A DNA stretch of 64,000 nt from Burkholderiales bacterium (GTDB lineage: Bacteria; Pseudomonadota; Gammaproteobacteria; Burkholderiales; SG8-39), in assembly GCA_035554435.1 (NCBI GenBank), contig DATMJC010000040.1, positions 42,222-106,221 on the forward strand, written 5' to 3'. The notes under the pieces were generated by a model, which was not told where the DNA came from, made no database searches, and was given only the letters and a program-made list of their open reading frames with translations. A program made the translations under genes and the position numbers. Below, piece after piece: positions 1,981 to 52,878 of this stretch; the stretch's first letter is position 1; every line of letters starts with the position of its first letter.

Positions 1981-2412
1981 ATGGCTCGGTACGTCGCATT
2001 TCTTCGGGGCGTAAGCCCGATGAACGCAAAGATGGCCGAGCTGAGGCGCTGCTTCGAGGCGGCGGGAATCACGCATGTGAAAACGAGGCGGTTCGGGCGC
2101 GCCTTCCACACGGTCGTACGATCCAGTGAAGCGCTGCAGGGGATGCTGGACGCGGGCCCGTTCGCGGCGTTTCGGCTGTCGGCAAAGGCGAAGCGCGTCG
2201 TGACCTTCCAGCGCAAGACCCCTCGCCGCCGGCTGTCGTTGCCGATCGAGATGCACGGCGCGCGCATTCTCGCCGCGCGCGGCCGCGAAATCTTTACCGC
2301 CTATGTGCCCAGTGCACGCGGCGCGGCATTCATGGCGCTGATCGAGAAGACCTTCGGCAGGGAGGTCACTACGCGCACCTGGGAGACGGTGAAGAAATGC
2401 GCGGTGGCCTGA
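1981..2412 (+). CDS. DUF1697 family protein (short, divergent)
   Basis: N-terminus MARYVAFLRGV..MAELR and C-terminus TTRTWETVKK match the DUF1697 pattern (LLRGINVGG..MaeLr ... T.RNWnTv.k). The central SGN region is not recognisable and the product is shorter than usual. Confidence 0.5.
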   Translation: MARYVAFLRGVSPMNAKMAELRRCFEAAGITHVKTRRFGRAFHTVVRSSEALQGMLDAGPFAAFRLSAKAKRVVTFQRKTPRRRLSLPIEMHGARILAARGREIFTAYVPSARGAAFMALIEKTFGREVTTRTWETVKKCAVA

Positions 2413-3438
2413 TCAAGCGCTGAGCTTGGGTATCACCTCGCTCACGAAGAGCTCGAGAGAGCGCATCGCGTGCTCGGGAGCGAGGTCGCCGAAGGAGAAG
2501 ACGCACAGCAGGTAGTTGGCGCTCGTGACGCGCAACATGTCCTGCACCTTGTCGAGCACCGTGCGCGGCGAGCCGACGACCAGCGGCTGGGTGGAGTCGG
2601 GGGCGAAGGGCTCGGTCTTGTGCACATCGGGCCGGCCATGCCTGCGCGTGAGGTGGTGGATGTGACTCGCCCAGGTGGCATAGGCCTCGAGCCCCAGGCG
2701 CTCGGCTTCGGCGTCGGTCTCCGCGATTACCATGTGCTGGGTCTTCGCGAGGAACGGCTCGGCGACGTGCGCGTTGTGCCGGTCCGGATCGTCGCGGTGC
2801 TTTGCCCAAAGCTCGCGATAGCGGTCGAAGTGCGGCTTGCAGTCGGCGAGCTTGCCGAGGAACGCGGTGTGGTAGCCGTGGCGCGCCGTGAAATCGATCG
2901 ACTCGCGGTTCGAGCTCGGGAACCAGAGCGGCGGCCAGGGCTTCTGCACCGGCTTGTTGTAGAGCTCGACGTCTTGTCCGCGATAGTTGGCAAGATCTTG
3001 GGTGCAAAAGCGGAAAAACCAATCGAGTGCTTCCCGGTATTTCTCGCGCGACTCGTCGATGCTCTGCAGCCCGAAGATCTTCGATTCGATCGGCGAGACG
3101 CCGCGGCCGACGCCGAGCTCGAGGCGGCCGCCGGACATCTGGTCGAGCATGCAGATCTCGTTGTAGAGACGGTAGGGGTCGTACCACGGCAGGCAGAAGG
3201 TGAGGCCGCCCGCGCGCAGCTGCCGCGTGCGCTGGAACATCGCCGACAGCATGACGCTCGGCGAGCCGTCGATCGAGAGGGGCGTGCCCTGGTGCTCGGC
3301 GACCAGATAGGCGTGGAAGCCCGCGTTGTCGGCCGCCGCCGCGAGCTCGAGCTTGTGCCGATAGACCTCGCCCGGGCTGCGCCGCGAAGCCTCGATCCAG
3401 TCGAACAGGCCGAAGCGCAGCTTTTCGTTCAATTCCAC
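2413..3438 (-). CDS. LLM-class (luciferase-like) flavin-dependent monooxygenase/oxidoreductase
   Basis: This is the C-terminal 342 aa of the composite 2413..4515 ORF: (V)ELNEKLRFGLFDWIE...FHAYLVAEHQGTPLS...GGRLELGVGRG. The GTG start at 3438 overlaps the upstream stop (3429-3431) by 10 nt. Confidence 0.8.
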   Translation of the reverse strand: MELNEKLRFGLFDWIEASRRSPGEVYRHKLELAAAADNAGFHAYLVAEHQGTPLSIDGSPSVMLSAMFQRTRQLRAGGLTFCLPWYDPYRLYNEICMLDQMSGGRLELGVGRGVSPIESKIFGLQSIDESREKYREALDWFFRFCTQDLANYRGQDVELYNKPVQKPWPPLWFPSSNRESIDFTARHGYHTAFLGKLADCKPHFDRYRELWAKHRDDPDRHNAHVAEPFLAKTQHMVIAETDAEAERLGLEAYATWASHIHHLTRRHGRPDVHKTEPFAPDSTQPLVVGSPRTVLDKVQDMLRVTSANYLLCVFSFGDLAPEHAMRSLELFVSEVIPKLSA

Positions 3439-6249: not shown

Positions 6250-6970
6250 GATAGGCGCGGCGCACGTCCTTGTCGGCGCGGATCTCGGCCGGTCTGCCGC
6301 TTGCGATGACCCGGCCGTTCACCAGCACGGTGATCCGGTCGGCGAGGCGGAAGACCGCGTCCATGTCGTGCTCGACCAGCAGCACCGTCACGCCGCCGCG
6401 GAGCCGGCCGATGAGCGCGATCATGCGCTGCGATTCCTCCGGGCCCATCCCGGCCATTGGCTCGTCAAGCAGCACGAGCCGCGGCTGCGTGGCGAGCGCA
6501 AGTCCGACTTCCAGCGCACGCTGTTCGCCGTGGGCCAAGGTGGAGGCGAGCGCTTCGACCTTCTCCGCAAGGCCGACGCGAGCGGCAAGGCCGCGGGCCT
6601 CGTCGAACAGCGCGCGTTCCGCGGCGACTGGACGCCAGAACGAGAAGCTCGAGCCGCGGCGCGCCTGCACCGCGAGCGCCAGGTTGTCGAGTACGCTGAA
6701 GCGCCTGAAGATGCTGGTGATCTGGTGGCTGCGGGCGAGACCCAGCCTCACCCGCTCGTACGGTTTCGCCTTCGTGATATCGCGTCCCTGGAAGCTGATC
6801 TGGCCTTCGTCGCTCGATACGCTGCCCGAAATCTGGCTGACCAGCGTGGTCTTGCCGGCGCCGTTGGGTCCGATCATCGCATGCACCTCGCCCGGCGCAA
6901 CGTCGAGGTTGACTCGATCCACCGCCACCACGCCACCGAAGCGCTTACTGAGGTTTCTTAGCGAAAGCAC
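6227..6970 (-). CDS. HAAT family ABC transporter ATP-binding protein, LivG-like
   Basis: Start trimmed to GTG giving (M)LSLRNLSKRFGGVVAV. Walker A GPNGAGKTT; LLDEPMAGM. It overlaps the permease stop upstream and the LivF-like start downstream. Confidence 0.9.
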   Translation of the reverse strand: MLSLRNLSKRFGGVVAVDRVNLDVAPGEVHAMIGPNGAGKTTLVSQISGSVSSDEGQISFQGRDITKAKPYERVRLGLARSHQITSIFRRFSVLDNLALAVQARRGSSFSFWRPVAAERALFDEARGLAARVGLAEKVEALASTLAHGEQRALEVGLALATQPRLVLLDEPMAGMGPEESQRMIALIGRLRGGVTVLLVEHDMDAVFRLADRITVLVNGRVIASGRPAEIRADKDVRRAYLGDELAA

Positions 6971-16543: not shown

Positions 16544-18331
16544 TTGGATTTCTTCGAACAGCAGGAGCGCAGCCGCAGCACCTCGCGCTGGCTCGTGCTC
16601 TGGTACCTCGTTGCGGTGGCGCTTACCGTGGCGAGCTATGCCGCGGTGGGCGCGCTCCTGTCGTGGCGGCTCGCCGGCGCCATCGCCGTGCTCGTCGCGG
16701 TCTGCATCCTTTGGGTCTCCGCCTACCGCATGTGGCAGTTCCGCGAAGGCGGACACGCGGTGGCCGACCTGCTCGGCGCCTCCTACGTCGATCCGGAGCG
16801 CGCCTCCCCAGCGGAGCGCAAGCTCCTCAACGTGGTGGACGAGATGTCGATCGCGTCGGGCGTCTCGGTTCCGCCGGTATACGTCATCCGCCGCGAGGAC
16901 GCGGTCAACGCGCTCGTCGCCGGCTACTCGCCGAACGAAGCCGTGATCGTGGTCACTGCCGGGGCGGTCGAGAAGCTCTCGCGCGACGAGCTGCAAGGGG
17001 TCATGGGGCACGAATTCAGCCACATCCTGAACGGCGACATGGCGCTCAACCTGCGCCTCGCCGCGCTGCTTGCGGGCCTCACCTGGGTCGGCGACCAGGC
17101 CGAGCGGCTCTTTTTCGCCTCGGCACGCGCCCAGCGGGCGGCGGGCGACGAGGGCAGCCCGGCGGCGTTCGCCGCGGTCTTCGCCGCGGCGGTGGCGTTC
17201 ATCGGTTTTCCCGGCACGCTGGCCGCGAGCGCGATCCGGGCTGCCGTTTCGCGCCAGCGCGAGTTCCTCGCCGACGCGGCGAGCGTGCAATTCACGCGCC
17301 ACGCCGACTCGATCGCGGGCGCCCTCGACTCGATCGTGGCCCTGCACGCCCGCACCGCCGTTCTCGCAGCCAACGCGCCCGGGCTTGCGCACATGTTCTT
17401 CGCGCCGGCCGTCGGAACCTGGTTCGGCTTCGCCACCCACCCGCCGATCGACGAGCGAATCCGGCGGGTGCATCCCCGCTTCCAGCGCGAGGACTACCGG
17501 GTCCGGCGCCACGGCCGCCGCGCCGAGGTCGCGGTGCTCGACGGCGCGGGGAACATCGTCAAGAACGTGCGCATGGCGCCGGCCGGAGTGGTGGCGAGCG
17601 TGGGCCGGCCGACCCGCGAGCACCTCGATTTCAGCAGACGGCTGCTCGAGAGCCTGCCTCCGCGGCTGCGGCAGGCGCTGCGCAGCGCGCCGGAAGCCGA
17701 ACGGGTGCTCTATGCCCTGGGCGGATTTTCCGATCGGGCGGGCGACCTCGCCGGCGACGTCCGGGCGCTCGCACGGCAGTCGGTGTTGATGCTTGCCGAG
17801 CTCGCGCTTCCGGCGGTGAAGGCCCAGCCGCAATCGCAGCGCGACCGGTTCCTGACGGAATTCGCGTCGCTGGTGGAGCGCGACGCCCGCGTGACACTGA
17901 ACGAATTCGTCCTGCTGACTCTTCTGCGCCAGCGCCTGCGCGAGGGCGCGGGCGAACCGATTGCAGCTCGCTATCGCAAACTCGGCGAGATTGCGGAAGA
18001 TGCCAGGACGCTGCTGTCCCTGGTGGCGCGCGTCTCGGGTGACGCCTCGGGCAAGGCCTTCGCCGCTGGCGCGCGCGTGCTCGAGCTGGGATGGGATGCG
18101 CCGTCGGAAGGCGAGAAGCTCACGAGCGCGAGCGTTTCGGCGTCCCTCGAGCGGCTGCGCCTGCTCGCGCCCTTCGCCAAGCCGGCGTTGCTGCGCGCTT
18201 GCGTCGAGACCGCCATGGCCGACGGCAGGCTGCGCGTCGCGGAAGCCGAGCTGCTGCGCGCCATCGCCGCGACGCTCGACTGCCCGGTTCCACCGCTAGT
18301 CGCTACTTTCCAGACAGGCGTCGACGAATAG
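16544..18331 (+). CDS. M48 family (HtpX-like) zinc metallopeptidase with a long C-terminal TerB-like extension
   Basis: Two N-terminal TM helices; HEFSHILNGD (HExxH). C-terminus ...CVETAMADGRLRVAEAELLRAIAATLDCP resembles a TerB/co-chaperone-like domain. The TTG start lies 2 nt after the LemA stop. Confidence 0.75.
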   Translation: MDFFEQQERSRSTSRWLVLWYLVAVALTVASYAAVGALLSWRLAGAIAVLVAVCILWVSAYRMWQFREGGHAVADLLGASYVDPERASPAERKLLNVVDEMSIASGVSVPPVYVIRREDAVNALVAGYSPNEAVIVVTAGAVEKLSRDELQGVMGHEFSHILNGDMALNLRLAALLAGLTWVGDQAERLFFASARAQRAAGDEGSPAAFAAVFAAAVAFIGFPGTLAASAIRAAVSRQREFLADAASVQFTRHADSIAGALDSIVALHARTAVLAANAPGLAHMFFAPAVGTWFGFATHPPIDERIRRVHPRFQREDYRVRRHGRRAEVAVLDGAGNIVKNVRMAPAGVVASVGRPTREHLDFSRRLLESLPPRLRQALRSAPEAERVLYALGGFSDRAGDLAGDVRALARQSVLMLAELALPAVKAQPQSQRDRFLTEFASLVERDARVTLNEFVLLTLLRQRLREGAGEPIAARYRKLGEIAEDARTLLSLVARVSGDASGKAFAAGARVLELGWDAPSEGEKLTSASVSASLERLRLLAPFAKPALLRACVETAMADGRLRVAEAELLRAIAATLDCPVPPLVATFQTGVDE

Positions 18332-19304
18332 TATCTCGCGTCTCGAGCACGGCCTTCGCATAGGGGCCCGTCGAGCCCGAGCGTTCGACGGCGCGCTCGA
18401 TGAGGGGCAGCGCCTCTTCGTTCTTGCCTTGATCGGAAAGCGTCTGGGCGAGGTTGTTGAGCACGATCACCGAGTCCGGAGCCCGCTTCATGGCGTCGCG
18501 CAGCACGCGCTCGGCCTCGGGCAGCGCGCCCAGGGCGTAATGCGAATTGGCGAGCCCGATGGCCGCGTTGACGTTCCCGGGCCAGCGCTTGAGAAAGCTG
18601 CCGTACGCGACGCGGGCGTTTGCCGCTCCTCCTGTGCGCTCCACGGCCGCCACGGCGCTCAGCCAGCGACCCTCGTCGGCCGTGGCCGGTATGCGATCGG
18701 GCGGCAGCGCGACCATCGCCCAGTAGTTGCCGCGCTTCCAGACGACCTCGTGCACAGTGAAGGGCATCAGGTCCCGCTCGGTGGTGCCGGAGCGCAGGAC
18801 GAGCATGCCGGCGTCGTAGTCGTAGCCGACGGCGACGGCGTAATGCCAGCCATCGCCCACGCCGAGGTTCTGCAGCACGATCACCGGGTTTCCCGCGGCG
18901 AGCTCGCGCAGCAGGTCTTCGAAGCGCGGCGCGAGCTGGTACGAGACCAGGCCGTGCCGGCGTGGCGCCGCGAGCATTTCCACCTGCAGGCTCCCTTTGC
19001 GCTCCGGAAGGTAGACCTGCGCTACGAGATCCTCCGGCGTGACCTTGACGCCGGAGGCCGCGAGCACGGTCGCGAGCGCGGCCGGGCCGCACTGGAATTC
19101 CTCCTGCGGGAAGAACGGCACCTCGCGCAGCTCGGTCCGTTCCGGAAGGCCCTGCGGCAGCGCGCGGCGCAGCTCCGCGGTCTGCGGCCACATGCTCGCG
19201 CAACCCGACAGCGCGAGCGCACAGGCGCAAACAAGAACGCCCGCGACTACGCGGGCGTTCTGTGCGGTCTTTCGGCCGAGTTGCGCTAGCGTTTCCAGAC
19301 CCAC
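18303..19304 (-). CDS. PA2778 family cysteine peptidase (C39-like peptidase domain + TPR), lipoprotein
   Basis: Lipobox ALALSGC. FFPQEEFQCGPAALATVL (catalytic Cys context), GWHYAVAVGYD (His), C-terminal TPR-like repeats. Confidence 0.7.
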   Translation of the reverse strand: MGLETLAQLGRKTAQNARVVAGVLVCACALALSGCASMWPQTAELRRALPQGLPERTELREVPFFPQEEFQCGPAALATVLAASGVKVTPEDLVAQVYLPERKGSLQVEMLAAPRRHGLVSYQLAPRFEDLLRELAAGNPVIVLQNLGVGDGWHYAVAVGYDYDAGMLVLRSGTTERDLMPFTVHEVVWKRGNYWAMVALPPDRIPATADEGRWLSAVAAVERTGGAANARVAYGSFLKRWPGNVNAAIGLANSHYALGALPEAERVLRDAMKRAPDSVIVLNNLAQTLSDQGKNEEALPLIERAVERSGSTGPYAKAVLETRDTIRRRLSGK

Positions 19305-19645
19305 CAGATCGCGGCGATGATGACGATGAGGAGGATAACACCGGCGGTGTCGCCGCCCGCGGGCAGCCGCTCGATTCTCCCGGCGAGGTACGCTACCTCG
19401 GTGTCGCTCATCGCGGCGACGCGGTCCTTCGCCGTCGCGGCGTCGAGGCCCATGGACTGGAGCTGGCCCGCCACGTCGGCGCGCGAGACGAAGCTCAGCA
19501 CCGCGGCCCGGTCAGCCTGCGACGAAGGCGCCGCGGCCTGATCCGTACCGATCATACCGGCCTGGGACACCTGGTACGGCGTCCAGACCATCAACACGAT
19601 CAGCAAACGGCATATTGTTCTTGCCCAAACGGATTTCATTTGCAC
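19286..19645 (-). CDS. PA2779 family small membrane-anchored protein
   Basis: Signal-like N-terminus, central LQSMGLDAATAKDRVAAMSDTEVAYLAGRIE, C-terminal TM GVILLIVIIAAIWWVWKR. It sits immediately upstream of, and overlaps, the PA2778-like gene. Confidence 0.6.
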   Translation of the reverse strand: MQMKSVWARTICRLLIVLMVWTPYQVSQAGMIGTDQAAAPSSQADRAAVLSFVSRADVAGQLQSMGLDAATAKDRVAAMSDTEVAYLAGRIERLPAGGDTAGVILLIVIIAAIWWVWKR

Positions 19646-22583: not shown

Positions 22584-23935
22584 GCGCCGAGCTCGGGCCG
22601 GCCGTGATCGCCTTCGTCGTCTTGGCGTGCCTGCTCGCGGGTTTCGGCCACGGCGCGCTTGGCTTCGGCTTCCCGATCGTCGCCACGCCGCTCGTGGCGC
22701 TCGCGATCGACATCAGGTCCGCGATCGCGCTGCTCGCGCCGATCACGCTCGTGCTCACGGTGATCTCGGCGCTGCGCGGCGTCGCCCTCTCGTCGATAGT
22801 GCGCGAATTCTGGTTCCTGCCGCTCGCTACGGCGCTCGGGGCCTGGCTCGGCACGCGCATCCTCCTTGCGATGCCCCCGGAGCCCTTTCTCCTCATACTG
22901 GCGGGGGTGATCCTTCTTTACCTCAATCTCGACCGCGTCGGCCGCGGCCGCAGCGCGCTGGTCCAGCGGCTGCGCGTGCCGTTCGGCGCAGCGTTCGGCT
23001 TTGTCGCCGGCGTGTGCGAGGCGGTAGCCAACGTCGCCGGCCCGATCCTGCTGATCTACTTCATGCTGCTCGGCCTCGCGCCGGCGCAGGTCGTGCAGAC
23101 GCTGAACCTGTGCTTCTCGCTCGGCAAGGGCGCCCAGACCGCCACCTGGGCGATGTCGGGCGAGATCAGCGTGGGTGGCTGGCTCCTGATCGGCGCGCTC
23201 ACCGTGCCTTCGGTGGCGGCGCTTTTCGCCGGCATGCGTGTGCGCAGCCGCATCGACGCACCGACGTACCGGCGCTGGCTCCGCGGCGCGCTATGGATCA
23301 TGGCGGTTCTCCTGCTCGTCCAGTTTTCGACCCGCGTGTCGGCGTCCGAGGAAGCCCTGTGGCGCGCGATCGAGCAGGACGACGAAGCCGCCGCGCTCGC
23401 GCTGGTGCGCGCCGGAAACCTCGACGTCAAGGCGCGCAACGCGGCGGGCGACACGCCGCTGCACCGCGCGGCGGAAAAGGGGATGCGCTCCCTCGCCGAG
23501 TCGCTGCTCGCGCGTGGCGCCGAGGTCAACGCGCGCTCCAAGAACGGCGAGACCCCGCTTCACTTCGCCGCGCTGGACGCAGACGTGTCGGTCGCCGAGC
23601 TGCTGCTCGACGCCGGCGCCGACCCGGGCGCGCAGAACAACGACGGCGAGTCGGTCCTGATGTGGGCGGCCCTGAGCGGCCATGTCGCGGTGGCGCAGCG
23701 CCTGCTCGCGCGCGGCGCCGACGCCAACGCCCGGGACCGCAAGGGCAGCCTGCCGCTGCACGCGGCGGCCGACGGCGGCCATCTCGAGCTCGCTCGCATG
23801 CTGTTGCCCCGCACCAAGGAGCCGCAGGCGAAAAACGGAGCTGGCAGGAGCGCGCTCGATTACGCGCGCGCCAACGGCTATGCCCAGATCGAGAAGCTGC
23901 TAGAAGGCCCGACCAGCCTAGAAGGCCCCAATTAG
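22580..23935 (+). CDS. TSUP (TauE/SafE) family membrane transporter fused to C-terminal ankyrin repeats
   Basis: ATGA overlap with the upstream stop. About 250 aa of polytopic membrane domain (GFGHGALGFGFPIVATPL...). This is followed by at least 4 ankyrin repeats (GDTPLHRAAEKG, GETPLHFAAL, GESVLMWAALSGH, GSLPLHAAADGGH). Confidence 0.75.
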   Translation: MSAELGPAVIAFVVLACLLAGFGHGALGFGFPIVATPLVALAIDIRSAIALLAPITLVLTVISALRGVALSSIVREFWFLPLATALGAWLGTRILLAMPPEPFLLILAGVILLYLNLDRVGRGRSALVQRLRVPFGAAFGFVAGVCEAVANVAGPILLIYFMLLGLAPAQVVQTLNLCFSLGKGAQTATWAMSGEISVGGWLLIGALTVPSVAALFAGMRVRSRIDAPTYRRWLRGALWIMAVLLLVQFSTRVSASEEALWRAIEQDDEAAALALVRAGNLDVKARNAAGDTPLHRAAEKGMRSLAESLLARGAEVNARSKNGETPLHFAALDADVSVAELLLDAGADPGAQNNDGESVLMWAALSGHVAVAQRLLARGADANARDRKGSLPLHAAADGGHLELARMLLPRTKEPQAKNGAGRSALDYARANGYAQIEKLLEGPTSLEGPN

Positions 23936-24904
23936 CCGCTCGTACGACCGGGTGCGCGAGGCGTAGTCGCCGGTAATGGTGAGGACCATCATCTCATCGG
24001 CGCCGTAGCGTCCAGCCATCGCCTCGAGCTCCTCGCGCACCCGCCGCGGGCCCCCGATGACTGCCCGGGCCCGCTGCCCGGCGACATATTCGCGCTCCGC
24101 AACGGTGTACTGGTGGGCTGCGGCCTCCTCGGCAGTGGGCACGGGCGAGTCGATATTGAGCGCCATGTGCAGCCGCCGCAGGTCGATGGGCCGCGCCAGC
24201 CGCTCGGCGTCTTCATCGTCCTCGCCGCAGATGGCGAACGCGCAGACCATGGTTCGGGGCGAGGGCTCGTGACCAGGGCGGAAATGCTCGCGATAGGCCT
24301 GCATCACTTCCTCGCCGCCGCGCGGGTTGATGAAATGAGCGAACGCGAACGCCATGCCGAGCTGCGCGGCGAGTGCGCCGCTGTAGTCCGAGGAGCCGAG
24401 GAGCCAGATCTCCGGCGCCGTCGGGACTTCGGGCTGGAGGCGCACGCGCTTGTAGGGATGGTCGGGGGGCAGCCTGCCGGCGAGGTGGGCGGCGAGCTCC
24501 CATACCTGCTGCGGAAACTGCTCGGCGTCCGGAAACCCGCCGCCGGCGACTGCCTGCGCGGTCCTGGCGTCGCCGCCGGGGGCGCGCCCGACACCAAGGT
24601 CGATGCGCCCGGGATAGAGCGCCTCGAGCATGCGAAATGCCTCCGCGGTCCGGAAGGCGGCGTAGTAGGGCAGCAGGATCCCGCCGGTCCCTATGCGCAG
24701 CCGGGAGGTCTCTGCGCCCAGGCGTGCCACGAGCACCTCGGGGCAGGGGTCTGCGAGTGCGGCGATCGCATGGTGCTCGGCCAGCCAGTAGCGGTGGTAG
24801 CCCAGCGCCTCGGCGCGGCGGGCGAGCGCCAGCGTCTCCAGGATCGCGCGGCGCGCGTCATGGCCGGCGATGACGGGCGACTGATCGAGGATCGAAAGCT
24901 TCAT
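23918..24904 (-). CDS. LLM-class flavin-dependent oxidoreductase (luciferase family, YhbW/MsnO8-like)
   Basis: MKLSILDQSP...GYHRYWLAEHH...GTGGILLPYY...IDLGVGRAPG. Confidence 0.8.
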   Translation of the reverse strand: MKLSILDQSPVIAGHDARRAILETLALARRAEALGYHRYWLAEHHAIAALADPCPEVLVARLGAETSRLRIGTGGILLPYYAAFRTAEAFRMLEALYPGRIDLGVGRAPGGDARTAQAVAGGGFPDAEQFPQQVWELAAHLAGRLPPDHPYKRVRLQPEVPTAPEIWLLGSSDYSGALAAQLGMAFAFAHFINPRGGEEVMQAYREHFRPGHEPSPRTMVCAFAICGEDDEDAERLARPIDLRRLHMALNIDSPVPTAEEAAAHQYTVAEREYVAGQRARAVIGGPRRVREELEAMAGRYGADEMMVLTITGDYASRTRSYERLIGAF

Positions 24905-25076
24905 CGTTTGCCTGAGCCGTCGTGGACGGGCGACACGAAAGACACTTGTGGATCAAGGCCGTTCGCACGCATGTGCCACTGTACGTCGTTACGCGGCGAC
25001 GCTTTTCGCATGAATGACTTGTAATGCTTTCTCCGACCCGTCTGCAATGCGCTGATCGTACTAGGTAAACGATTCT

Positions 25077-25092
25077 TGGCACGCTGATTGCA
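25077..25092 (+). promoter_or_regulatory. sigma-54 (RpoN) promoter, -24/-12 elements TGGCACG-N4-TTGCA
   Basis: The sequence cTTGGCACGCTGATTGCAg is read directly. It matches the consensus TGGCACG-N4-TTGCW at every conserved position (GG at 25078-79, GC at 25090-91). It lies in a lower-GC gap about 30 nt upstream of the 25123 ATG. Confidence 0.6.
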
Positions 25093-25122
25093 GGGGGATG
25101 TGCAAGAACTCTTTACCCCGTC

Positions 25123-25233
25123 ATGGACCCCAAGTTCATCCAGCACGTTCATCCGGCATTGTCGATTGCCACCATGGTGCTGCTCGCGCTTGCGGTCGCG
25201 GGCGTGCTGCTGGCGACCGGGTTGCTCCAATGA
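25123..25233 (+). CDS. 36-aa hydrophobic micro-protein (single TM helix)
   Basis: Not in the track (too short). MDPKFIQHVHPALSIATMVLLALAVAGVLLATGLLQ. 30 of 36 codons end in G/C, like real genes here, whereas the overlapping frame of the listed 25098 ORF is poor in G/C at position 3. The stop overlaps the next start (ATGA, 25230-25233). No obvious Shine-Dalgarno sequence. Confidence 0.45.
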   Translation: MDPKFIQHVHPALSIATMVLLALAVAGVLLATGLLQ

Positions 25234-25556
25234 GCGAAATGCGAGTCAAGCAGGAAGCGTTCGCCTTGGCGCAAGCCTGCCTTGGGTTCGTCATCCTCGC
25301 GCTCGTGCTCCTTGGCATTGGCGGCACCATCTACAAGATCATTTCGCCCGACGGCTGGGTGGCGCAGGCGTTCGGCCGCAGCCTCTCCGCCGGCGCGGCG
25401 GCGCTCGGCTCCCTGATCATGGTAGTCGCGCTTGCGTGGTTCTCGCGCGGCAGCTCCCCCCGCCGGCGCACGCAATTCGCCGACGTCGCGATCTATGGGT
25501 TCGCGGCGGCCGGGCTCCTCTACGTCGTGCAGCTCTGGATCCGAGGCAGTTTCTGA
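25230..25556 (+). CDS. 108-aa integral membrane protein (3 predicted TM helices), family unknown
   Basis: Trimmed from the 25098 ORF to MSEMRVKQEAFALAQACLGFVILALVLLGIGG.... The upstream 44 codons of the track ORF have non-coding-like composition and lie upstream of the predicted sigma-54 transcription start. Confidence 0.6.
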   Translation: MSEMRVKQEAFALAQACLGFVILALVLLGIGGTIYKIISPDGWVAQAFGRSLSAGAAALGSLIMVVALAWFSRGSSPRRRTQFADVAIYGFAAAGLLYVVQLWIRGSF

Positions 25557-25594
25557 TGCGCTGACCGGTCCAAAGCCGCAGTACCGTCTCCCCT

Positions 25595-25634
25595 GGGCCC
25601 GCGCTGCCCCCCCATAAGCCGGGCCCTTTTTTTT
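25595..25634 (+). terminator. Rho-independent terminator
   Basis: GGGCCCG (25595-25601) pairs with CGGGCCC (25620-25626) and is followed by T8 (25627-25634). It sits 39 nt after the stop at 25556. Confidence 0.65.
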
Positions 25635-25668
25635 GCCTGCAGGAAATTCGACGAAACCTGAGCGTCGG

Positions 25669-26766
25669 TCAGCGCGAGGTCACGACTACCCTCAATAGGG
25701 CGCCACCGAGGAACGCTGCTGCCACCGTCGCGCCGAACAGACCCTTGCGCTGGAGTGCGTGGACCAGCACGTTTTGCGAGTCCCACGCTCGCCGCCGCTC
25801 GCCGAGCGGCGCGGTGCGGGGCGACACCGCAGGTGAAGCAGCCTTCGCGGGCGTCGTCGCTTCGCCGAGATTCGGCTTCTGCGGCTGCTCGCCGCGGCGC
25901 GATCCCCGCGCGTGCGCGTACACCCAGGTGAACTCGGCGCCGAGCAGGAAGATCTGCGCCGAATAGTAGACCCACACCATCACGATCACGATCGAGCCGA
26001 AGGCGCCGAAGCTCGAGCCCACGTCGCCCTTGCCGAGGTACAGCCCGATCAGGAACTTGCCGATGACGAAGAGCAGCGCCGTCACCAGAGCGCCCACCCA
26101 CACGTCGCGCCACTGGATGCTCGCGCGCGGCATCAGCTTGTAGATCGCGCCGAACACCACCGTCAGAACGCCGAAATTCACCACGATGTCCGAAAAGTGC
26201 GCGATGGCTTCCCATTGGCCGAAGAAGGGCCCCCACCATTTGCCCAGGGCGCTCAGCGCCGCACTGAGGAGAAGCGACACCGTCACGAGGAAGGCGAGGC
26301 CGAGCACCATGCCGAACGTGAGCAGGCGAGAACGCAGGAAGCTCCAGACGCCGTTCGCCTGTTCCTTGCGCTTCTGCGACTCGGGAACCCGCCAGATCGT
26401 GTCGAGCGCGGTTTGGAGCTGCCCGAAGACGCTGGAGGCGCTGAAGAGGAGCACTGCAATGCTCACTGCCGTCGTCATGGCCCCGGTCTTGGGCTCGCTC
26501 ACGTGCGCCAGCATCTCGCGGATGGCCTCCGCTCCGCTCTGCCCCATGAGCGCGGCGACCTGCTCGAACACCATGCCGCGCACGGCGTCGGGACCGACGA
26601 CGAGGCCCGCGATCGAAATGATCAGGTAGAGCAGCGGCGCGATCGAAAACATCGAGTAGTAGGCGAGCGCTGCTCCCTTGCTCGGGGCCTGGTCGTTCCA
26701 CCACGCGGTGAAAGCGTTCACCAGCATGCGCACGTACTTCTTTTGCAGCAGGCCCTTGGCGTTCAT
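25669..26766 (-). CDS. YihY/BrkB (virulence factor BrkB / former RNase BN) family membrane protein
   Basis: MNAKGLLQKKYVRMLVNAFTAWWNDQAPSKGAALAYYSMFSIAPLL... (366 aa) within the composite 25669..27834 ORF. ATGA overlap with the upstream gene at 26763-26766. Confidence 0.85.
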   Translation of the reverse strand: MNAKGLLQKKYVRMLVNAFTAWWNDQAPSKGAALAYYSMFSIAPLLYLIISIAGLVVGPDAVRGMVFEQVAALMGQSGAEAIREMLAHVSEPKTGAMTTAVSIAVLLFSASSVFGQLQTALDTIWRVPESQKRKEQANGVWSFLRSRLLTFGMVLGLAFLVTVSLLLSAALSALGKWWGPFFGQWEAIAHFSDIVVNFGVLTVVFGAIYKLMPRASIQWRDVWVGALVTALLFVIGKFLIGLYLGKGDVGSSFGAFGSIVIVMVWVYYSAQIFLLGAEFTWVYAHARGSRRGEQPQKPNLGEATTPAKAASPAVSPRTAPLGERRRAWDSQNVLVHALQRKGLFGATVAAAFLGGALLRVVVTSR

Positions 26767-52314: not shown

Positions 52315-52878
52315 ATGTTTACCGGGATCGTGCAGGCCGTCGGCGAGATCGTCCGGGCGCAGCCGTTCGAGGTCGACAGCCGCGCCCTGGACATGGCCGA
52401 CGTCGGCACCGGCGACTCCATCTGCGTGCAAGGCGTGTGCCTCACCCTCACTTCGCTCACCGCGCGCGGCTTCACCGCCGACGTGTCGCCAGCCACCCTC
52501 GCCGTGACGGTCGGCCTCGACCGCGCCGGCCCGGTTAACCTTGAGAAATCGCTTGCCGTGGGCAAGCCCCTCGGCGGCCATTTCGTCGCCGGCCACGTCG
52601 ACGGCGTGGGTGAAGTGACGCGCTTCGAGAAGGGCGTGCTCGAGGTGCGCGCCCCGCACGAGCTCGCCCGCTACATTGCCCGCAAGGGCTCGATCTGCAT
52701 CGACGGCGTGAGCCTGACGGTCAATCGCGTGGAGGGCAGCGTATTCGAGGTCTACCTAATCCCGCATACGCTGGAAGTCACGACGCTCGGCCGTCTGCGG
52801 GCGGGCGTCCGCGTGAACCTGGAGGCCGATCTGATCGCCCGCTACGTTGCGAGGCTGCTCGAAGCGTCCGACCTGTGA
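52315..52878 (+). CDS. ribE: riboflavin synthase (alpha chain)
   Basis: MFTGIVQAVGEI...GDSICVQGVCLT (first barrel) and GHVDGVG...GSICIDGVSLTV (second barrel). Confidence 0.9.
   Translation: MFTGIVQAVGEIVRAQPFEVDSRALDMADVGTGDSICVQGVCLTLTSLTARGFTADVSPATLAVTVGLDRAGPVNLEKSLAVGKPLGGHFVAGHVDGVGEVTRFEKGVLEVRAPHELARYIARKGSICIDGVSLTVNRVEGSVFEVYLIPHTLEVTTLGRLRAGVRVNLEADLIARYVARLLEASDL

Follow-up and report, generated by a model that had tools for sequence, protein, structure and literature searches.

Three direct targets of the QseE/QseG/QseF (GlrK/GlrR) system of Enterobacteriaceae are glmY, glmZ and rpoE, and the response regulator QseF/GlrR binds palindromes of the form TGTC-N10-GACA (TGT-N12-ACA) over 100 bp ahead of the sigma-54 promoters of these genes, with a requirement for integration host factor (IHF) (PMC3045617; PMC6075780). 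Clusters of qseEGF genes also occur in Betaproteobacteria (PMC12691602). Our literature searches retrieved no description of a QseEGF role in the non-enterobacterial lineages that carry this system and no account of a QseF regulon of the kind outlined below. Here we analyze an operon from an uncultured Burkholderiales bacterium of soil. Its two genes encode small membrane proteins, and it is located within 64,000 nucleotides of contig DATMJC010000040.1 (assembly GCA_035554435.1, positions 42,222 to 106,221), a stretch referred to below as the window, with coordinates counted from its first letter. We propose, with a probability of about 0.7, that a distant envelope-sensing system resembling QseE/QseG/QseF activates this operon from its sigma-54 promoter and would also control other small envelope proteins.

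The operon, which encodes a 36-aa peptide and a 108-aa protein denoted p108, was compared with a related set of approximately 170 loci, 52 of which are related genome loci encoding p108. Judged by this comparison, it is a real, conserved transcription unit, and a complete enhancer-dependent sigma-54 unit spans positions 24918-25634. At the level of sequence, the comparison establishes the architecture of the unit and its conservation, the helical phasing of its regulatory sites, their adjacency to regulator genes, and coding selection on both open reading frames (ORFs). Every element named in a preliminary description of this locus was found in its place, and neither of the two proteins falls into a described Pfam or NCBIfam family. 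The designation of the module as self-contained has to be abandoned: the operon is one target of a larger candidate regulon with identical enhancer architecture, and its likely activator is encoded elsewhere.

Promoter and enhancer architecture

The sigma-54 promoter, TGGCACG-N4-TTGCA (TGGCACGCTGATTGCA; 25077-25092, plus strand), is an exact match to the consensus, as originally described, with the GG (25078-25079) and GC (25090-25091) dinucleotides 10 bp apart within TGGCAC-N5-TTGCW. The -24/-12 element is present upstream of the p108 operon in 52 of 52 related genome loci, intergenic and in the correct orientation. Together with two upstream palindromes, it was recovered by a strict regular expression in 49 of these loci and by inspection in the other 3. 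Given the usual spacing to the -12 element, transcription would start near position 25103. That the match is fortuitous and the operon is transcribed via another sigma factor appears extremely improbable. No support for this was found, and a scan for the sigma-70 consensus across positions 24700-25900 yielded no promoter-like site; an exact match to TGGCACG-N4-TTGCW is expected by chance only 0.03 times per window, and the element is kept in every related locus along with a phased enhancer and an IHF-like site. Two sigma-54-like sites with one mismatch (17286-17301 and 52427-52442, both on the minus strand) are antisense within long coding ORFs (16544-18331 and 52315-52878, respectively) and were dismissed as chance matches.

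The preliminary description had proposed a search of the upstream region for inverted repeats of the type bound by bacterial enhancer-binding proteins (bEBPs). Two conserved palindromes are indeed found there, 142 and 76 bp upstream of the promoter. The distal one, upstream activating sequence 1 (UAS1; CGTCGTGGACGGGCGACA, 24918-24935), has the form yGTCG-N8-CGACr; the proximal one, UAS2 (CGTCGTTACGCGGCGACG, 24984-25001), starts 66 bp after the start of UAS1 and 92 bp before the promoter. UAS1 agrees with the core of the published QseF/GlrR consensus, TGTC-N10-GACA (PMC3045617). At the position equivalent to UAS1, each of the 52 p108 loci has a GTCG-N8-CGAC palindrome. In the five closest sequences, the central 8 nt vary between invariant GTCG/CGAC half-sites, which is the footprint expected for a dimeric DNA-binding protein. 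In the approximately 1 Mb of sequence examined, paired palindromes occur only ahead of such promoters.

The geometry of this arrangement was defined using 161 unique sites among the matches listed, in which the GTC-N10-GAC core is invariant by construction of the search. The spacing between the starts of UAS1 and UAS2 is 64-68 bp. The distances between UAS2 and the promoter fall into four classes, 58-60, 67-72, 79-84 and 89-94 bp, with almost none in between, although the metagenome search pattern permitted any distance within 65-95; the UAS2 of the window, at 92 bp, belongs to the last class. Such steps of about 11 bp are expected from face-of-the-helix constraints. The spacer between UAS2 and the promoter contains a sequence with at most one mismatch to the IHF consensus, WATCAR-N4-TTR, in 99 of the 161 sites, compared with about 9 in shuffled sequences, and 93 of these 99 IHF-like sites are on the minus strand in a single position bin, 31-35 nt before the promoter. 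The IHF-like site of the window (GATCAGCGCATTG; 25045-25057, minus strand) has one mismatch to the consensus. From this distribution, the length changes appear to lie between UAS2 and the IHF-like site, leaving the distance from the latter to the promoter nearly fixed. A location of the IHF site between UAS1 and UAS2 was considered and rejected, with strict matches there in just 8 of the 161 sites.

In 83% of the 161 sites, UAS2 begins with C; the share in which UAS1 ends with A is also 83%. In the spacer between UAS1 and UAS2 (24936-24983 in the window), a conserved A-rich run directly follows UAS1, with a (T)CAAG motif about 20 nt beyond it.

The promoter and the IHF-like site lie in a 218-bp gap flanked by a divergent gene for an MsnO8-family luciferase-like monooxygenase (LLM) oxidoreductase (23918-24904, minus strand) and the first ORF of the module. 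The GC content of this intergenic region (24905-25122) is 0.55 compared with 0.678 across the window, in agreement with the lower-GC gap noted previously. The palindromes could conceivably serve as operators of the LLM gene; this possibility was rejected because they are also found where there is no LLM gene and are in phase with the sigma-54 promoter. Being present with or without LLM as the upstream neighbor, the palindromes are part of the p108 promoter. Many p108 loci, though not every one, have the LLM gene in that place. In the window, its start codon is 14 nt from UAS1 (24902-24935), so that its ribosome-binding region and promoter must overlap the enhancer, and an activator bound at UAS1 could influence this divergent gene. 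The p108-encoding genome loci (n = 49) all come from metagenome-assembled genomes of uncultured Burkholderiales or Betaproteobacteria; synteny to thyA is kept, and LLM and YihY genes are often nearby too.

A likely GlrR/QseF-like activator and its candidate regulon

The bEBP-type motif G[AS]F[TS]GA was detected in at least 25 of the metagenome loci, and a candidate bEBP ORF could be extracted from 23 of 25. In about 20 of these 23, among the matches listed, the stop codon of the bEBP gene lies 10-35 nt before UAS1. The only bEBP gene found that does not adjoin the UAS is that of locus L077, which is located about 4.4 kb away on the opposite strand. The candidate bEBP is typically about 446 aa long and consists of a receiver, an AAA+ sigma-54-interaction and a Fis-type DNA-binding domain. 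For all seven regulators tested, the best full-length NCBIfam match is GlrR, with scores of 524-636 bits compared with 380-436 for the next family. In three loci (L118, L156 and L163), the regulator gene is preceded by genes for a kinase and a lipoprotein, in the order kinase-lipoprotein-regulator. The kinase, a 488-aa histidine kinase, matches Salmonella QseE (PDB 9M08_C, from the structure of the QseG-QseE complex) over its full length (residues 11-480, E = 9e-66), with other PDB chains far weaker. The lipoprotein, of about 160 aa, agrees with QseG in gene position and in the lipoprotein signal (...AGC).

In most regulator loci, among the matches listed, the gene directly downstream of the regulator encodes a YcfJ-like protein. 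In two loci, p108 itself is adjacent. L132 shows the order regulator, enhancer and promoter, 179-aa YcfJ-like protein, p108, 3' element (see below) and thyA, and in L117, p108 is directly behind the promoter that follows the regulator. These two loci tie p108 to the regulator beyond the shared motif. From these related loci, we predict that a GlrR/QseF-like response regulator, with its gene elsewhere in the genome, is the likely activator of the operon in the window; the presence of the regulator, rpoN and the kinase in this organism would follow from their presence in its relatives.

Several observations weigh against this assignment. In keeping with the statement in the preliminary description that no enhancer-binding protein is encoded nearby, the 64-kb window contains no regulator, rpoN or kinase gene and no GAFTGA-type motif in any frame; nor is there an activator gene within 10 kb in L050 and L051. 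All seven regulators score below the NCBIfam equivalog cut-off for GlrR, 763 bits. The lipoprotein has no sequence match in Pfam, NCBIfam or PDB and no detectable similarity to QseG. Compared with TGTC-N10-GACA, the sites of the window read CGTC...GACA and CGTC...GACG, so that three of the four half-sites start with C instead of the T of the consensus, and there are two sites at a fixed spacing, unlike the three at E. coli glmY. Within the operon, the ORF for the 36-aa peptide lacks a Shine-Dalgarno sequence, and the structural model of p108 is of low confidence (predicted local distance difference test score 64.7, predicted template modeling score 0.33), too poor for fold comparison.

The missing regulator gene and the subthreshold scores would also fit a scheme in which the promoter is sigma-54-dependent, with the palindromes bound by a different activator or transcription factor and the adjacency to GlrR-like genes characterizing only a subset of the targets. 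Other proteins with Fis-type helix-turn-helix domains recognize palindromes similar to TGT-N12-ACA, with PpsR listed with TGTcN10gACA. Against this scheme, which we consider quite unlikely, UAS1 begins 10-35 nt after a GlrR-like stop codon in about 20 independent loci, the regulators are GlrR-best in 7 of 7 tests, p108 itself is the adjacent target in two loci, and with the single exception of L077, the bEBP genes found adjoin the UAS.

Under the preferred interpretation, activation by a GlrR/QseF-like regulator, the QseE-like kinase and the lipoprotein would sense an envelope signal and phosphorylate the regulator, which, encoded elsewhere, would bind to UAS1 and UAS2. IHF would bend the DNA at its site, which lies shortly before the -24 element, and the ATPase of the activator would then open the closed sigma-54 complex at 25077-25092. 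The resulting rpoN-dependent transcript would run from about 25103 to the hairpin and U8 tract at 25595-25634, and its predicted products are the 36-aa single-helix peptide and the 108-aa three-helix inner-membrane protein, encoded by genes with an ATGA overlap.

To identify other genes behind the same enhancer architecture, metagenome contigs were scanned for two palindromes, a gap and GGCAYG-N4-TTGC, yielding at least 119 stretches with at least 120 sites. Target families were counted from clusters of the ORFs that come first behind the sites, among the matches listed. A hidden Markov model (HMM) search detected p108 downstream of 20 of the 120 sites, likewise among the matches listed (at least 18 by ORF cluster, at least 20 by HMM search), and the same architecture precedes at least 8 other gene families in soil metagenomes. 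These encode a 69-aa protein of no known family (at least 20 sites); YcfJ-like proteins, in which a membrane helix and a CxxCG motif are accompanied by a glycine zipper and a small C-terminal domain (at least 20); bactofilin (at least 19); EF-hand/BON (OsmY-like) proteins (at least 6); MlaC-like proteins (at least 4); small glycine-zipper lipoproteins (at least 4); OpgG (at least 2); and a CsbD-like protein (at least 1). The remaining sites among the matches listed are followed by single other genes or by no ORF call. Direct evidence of several targets in one genome comes from the 11-kb contig L120, which carries two such promoters on the minus strand: one after a GlrR-like gene and before a YcfJ-like gene, the other before an MlaC-like gene (979-1140 and 6297-6457 are the positions of the two).

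The presence of glycine-zipper, BON, MlaC, OpgG, CsbD-like and bactofilin proteins among the co-regulated products indicates that the likely role of the regulon is envelope protection or remodeling under a stress sensed by the kinase-lipoprotein pair. That the p108 operon is stress-inducible, as suggested in the preliminary description, we infer solely from the kinds of co-regulated genes, namely, those for OsmY-like BON, CsbD-like, glycine-zipper and MlaC proteins and OpgG.

The 69-aa protein (MDRRLTAEDIDWLRKLRNA...), without a Pfam or NCBIfam family, is the commonest target other than p108 among the matches listed (L052, L055, L058, L060 and at least 16 more metagenome loci). The leader of its gene, about 65 nt long, contains a conserved GCGCAGG...CCTGCGC hairpin. 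In L118, the regulator gene is followed by the YcfJ-like gene and then by genes of the PA2779 family. In the window, the region 18303-19645 (minus strand) contains an ORF (19286-19645; ...AGMIGTDQAA...) that resembles PA2779-family proteins, by eye only; no enhancer pair was found upstream of it. In L050, genes for a DUF6627 protein and a C39-peptidase/TPR protein are located a few kb from p108.

The two genes and the conserved 3' element

The first ORF of the operon (25123-25233, plus strand; MDPKFIQHVHPALSIATMVLLALAVAGVLLATGLLQ) encodes a 36-aa peptide with one hydrophobic helix. The coding signal described previously is borne out: third codon positions have a GC content of 0.83 in this frame compared with 0.41 in the frame of the overlapping ORF that starts at 25098. 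The ATG of that rival frame, sometimes chosen by gene callers, is upstream of the putative transcription start near 25103. The ORF had been regarded as unannotated, which is no longer tenable, with the identical peptide already called as a hypothetical protein on 116 public contigs. The peptide is present in the four closest loci, and a shorter homolog is encoded in L012 and L014 (tblastn, 3.5e-7). In a 90%-identity cluster, it is joined by versions of 43-47 aa, indicating alternative start calls upstream, and by an 892-aa Ca-ATPase of Peribacillus, evidently a clustering artifact of a short hydrophobic sequence.

The conservation of the frame, left as a question in the preliminary description, is biased toward synonymous changes. 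The ratio of nonsynonymous to synonymous differences (pN/pS) lies at 0.00-0.24 for five close relatives and at 0.26 for the pair L012 and L014, and exceeds 1 in both other frames of the region; variable columns are distributed across codon positions 1, 2 and 3 as 3:1:13. The 9-nt indel relative to L012 and L014 is in frame, the start and stop are conserved, and the ATGA overlap with p108 (25230-25233) is kept in 7 of 7 sequences. By these comparisons, purifying selection acts on the 36-codon ORF.

The slot separating the promoter from p108 differs widely among the 52 loci. About 32 loci have no ORF in it, and p108 then usually comes with a GGAGG-type ribosome-binding site of its own; the slot contains a 30-36-aa peptide in 7 loci, a 47-aa membrane-helix protein in L020 and YcfJ-like proteins of 99-179 aa in about 10. 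In L049, it is occupied by an ORF with a transposase domain (DUF772; 2362-3312), apparently an insertion into the operon leader. The YcfJ-like slot proteins of other lineages, which belong with the glycine-zipper 2TM proteins (NCBIfam PRK11280; Pfam Rick_17kDa_Anti), consist of an N-terminal membrane helix, a CxxCG motif, a glycine zipper in some, and a small C-terminal domain. The small peptides align with the N-terminal membrane helix of these proteins (xHP/YP, helix, TG-LP). Scored with an HMM of the YcfJ-like N-terminus, 17 of 1000 shuffled sequences match as well as the L012 peptide and 9 of 1000 as well as that of L014, which is marginal; for the peptide of the window, 293 of 1000 do, so that its homology to the YcfJ-like N-termini is not significant. 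Unlike the YcfJ-like proteins, this peptide comprises only the membrane helix and stops after it, with no glycine zipper or C-terminal domain, and a family scan gave only a chance-level match to DUF5708. A truncation of a YcfJ-like glycine-zipper gene is a plausible origin of the 36-aa ORF, with the balance for and against it even.

The empty slots in about 32 loci, the longer or truncated YcfJ-like genes in other lineages and the lack of a Shine-Dalgarno sequence are also compatible with an ORF that has no function as a peptide, being either the decaying residue of an upstream gene since lost or a frame translated solely to bring ribosomes to p108. We consider this rather unlikely in view of the low pN/pS values, the concentration of changes in codon position 3, the in-frame indel and the conserved start and stop; a pure coupling device has no need of a conserved amino-acid sequence. 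A functional peptide, perhaps a small membrane partner of p108, would fit the purifying selection better than such a device.

The second ORF (25230-25556, plus strand) encodes p108, a 108-aa membrane protein of an uncharacterized family, for which the three helices and the ATGA overlap reported previously were recovered: hydropathy reveals three hydrophobic segments, and the predicted model likewise has three helices. The exact protein is available under NCBI accession HWI98785.1. We detected 691 homologs at E<=0.01, and among 24 diverse members, 36 columns are invariant, including GIGGTIYK, PDGW, FGRSLSAG and AWFSRG. Neither p108 nor its distant members have significant matches in Pfam, and p108 has none in NCBIfam; a profile search against 1.84 billion cluster representatives returned 105 relatives at E<=1e-3, which, together with the absence of a family match, indicates a narrow, undescribed family. 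By the positive-inside rule, the RRRR-rich loop (residues 72-85) would be cytoplasmic. This would place the N-terminus in the cytoplasm, the C-terminus outside the inner membrane and the conserved GIGGTIYK...PDGW...FGRSLSAG region at the periplasmic face.

The operon ends with a conserved 3' element (25588-25634, plus strand) that consists of CUCCCC, a 7+3-bp GC hairpin with a C-rich loop (CCCCCCCAUAA) and U8, and is an intrinsic terminator. The hairpin, GGGCCCG...CGGGCCC (25595-25626), and the T8 tract (25627-25634) fold as originally proposed; a simple terminator scan gave no hit here, an artifact of the loop being longer than 8 nt. The sequence of the element, including the loop, is kept in all 50 full-length genome loci and in the window, where it follows p108 after an unconserved spacer of variable length; overall, it was seen in L001-L051 and in 12 metagenome loci. 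The consensus combines (C)CUCCCC, a GGGCCCG/CGGGCCC stem whose loop includes CCCC(C)UACA, and a U tract. When 34 diverse sequences were aligned, the loop CCCC, the 5' CUCCCC and most of the element showed little or no variation, with the p108 proteins of these loci just 43-96% identical. A covariance model yielded 13 matches in 661 kb of related sequence, all directly after p108 and none after other genes of the regulon. One compensatory change, of a single pair, was identified by eye in the stem of L044 (GGACCCG/CGGGTCC). RNAalifold applied to a MAFFT alignment found no pair changed on both sides, the stem being nearly invariant and its 3' arm partly misaligned. Across positions 24600-25900, there was no match to known RNA families in Rfam except for a chance microRNA at E=0.43.

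In a subset of the p108 3' untranslated regions (3'UTRs; L009, L010, L012, L014, L015, L017, L018, L027, L031, L033, L037 and L040), an additional hairpin with a GNRA-type loop (CGATC-GAAA-GATCG or GGCC-GCAA-GGCC) is located just upstream of CUCCCC, often preceded by TCAAGCGG. Its stems differ by lineage, and the pairing is kept.

The conservation of the loop and the 5' flank of the terminator is more than termination alone requires. This pattern could be explained by a protein-binding site or by a regulatory RNA that derives from the 3'UTR and has C-rich seeds. CpxQ, from cpxP, and GlnZ, from glnA, are small RNAs (sRNAs) derived from 3'UTRs. Like these, the p108 element is short and conserved in sequence, ends in the terminator of its own mRNA, carries single-stranded C-rich motifs able to pair with ribosome-binding sites and follows a candidate stress-regulated envelope gene; unlike them, it is known from sequence alone, with no Rfam match and no covariation. 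A more specific scenario can be sketched, albeit as a doubtful one: the 3' end (CUCCCC, the hairpin with a CCCCCC loop, and U8) would be released as a short trans-acting RNA with C-rich anti-Shine-Dalgarno seeds under QseF-like control, paralleling the control of GlmY by enterobacterial QseF but with the RNA derived from the 3'UTR of an mRNA for a membrane protein, and the 36-aa peptide would be a retained membrane-helix subunit of p108, cut from a YcfJ-like ancestor. In any case, the locus provides a clean natural series for studying how truncation of a larger gene may give rise to one for a small peptide, and also why a terminator is conserved down to its loop.

Comparison with known sigma-54 systems

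The preliminary description had compared the operon with the Psp envelope-stress effectors. Within the PspF regulon, pspG is a gene for a small inner-membrane protein that has its own sigma-54 promoter, with enhancer and IHF sites, away from the activator gene. The layout of the p108 operon is similar: the gene encodes a small membrane protein and has a sigma-54 promoter of its own, putative activator sites upstream, an IHF-like site and a predicted activator encoded at a distance. This likeness is the argument for a Psp-type (phage-shock) effector module, which we nevertheless consider very unlikely. There is no sequence relationship to pspG, and neither protein of the operon matches the PspA, PspB, PspC, PspD or PspG families of Pfam and NCBIfam at E<=1. 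The associated activator is a two-component response regulator with a receiver domain and a cognate kinase, unlike the receiver-less PspF, and scores 608 bits to GlrR compared with 236 to PspF. Thus, the analogy with Psp does not hold beyond the layout.

The closest counterpart is the QseE/QseG/QseF (GlrK/GlrR) system of Enterobacteriaceae. Both combine a sigma-54 promoter with several TGTC-N10-GACA-type palindromes and an IHF or IHF-like site (PMC3045617; PMC6075780), and both have a regulator with a receiver, an AAA+ and a Fis-type helix-turn-helix domain, genes in the order kinase-lipoprotein-regulator, with the kinase here a full-length QseE homolog, and a link, in our case that of a candidate system, to the cell envelope. 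The differences are that the targets identified here are protein-coding genes for small envelope proteins instead of the sRNAs GlmY and GlmZ or rpoE; the half-sites are extended to GTCG/CGAC; the lipoprotein and the regulators depart from QseG and the GlrR equivalogs as specified above; and the target in the window is far from the regulator gene.

The proposed mechanism, a QseF/GlrR-type sigma-54 promoter, is of an already known type, and the p108 and 69-aa families are undescribed. The locus led to a sequence-defined candidate regulon with a rigid enhancer-IHF-promoter geometry in abundant uncultured soil Burkholderiales. If the proposed control is true, QseEGF-like systems gain a protein-level output, along with a set of reporter promoters, and this would also suggest that the ancestral job of QseEGF was envelope protection rather than the control of sRNAs.

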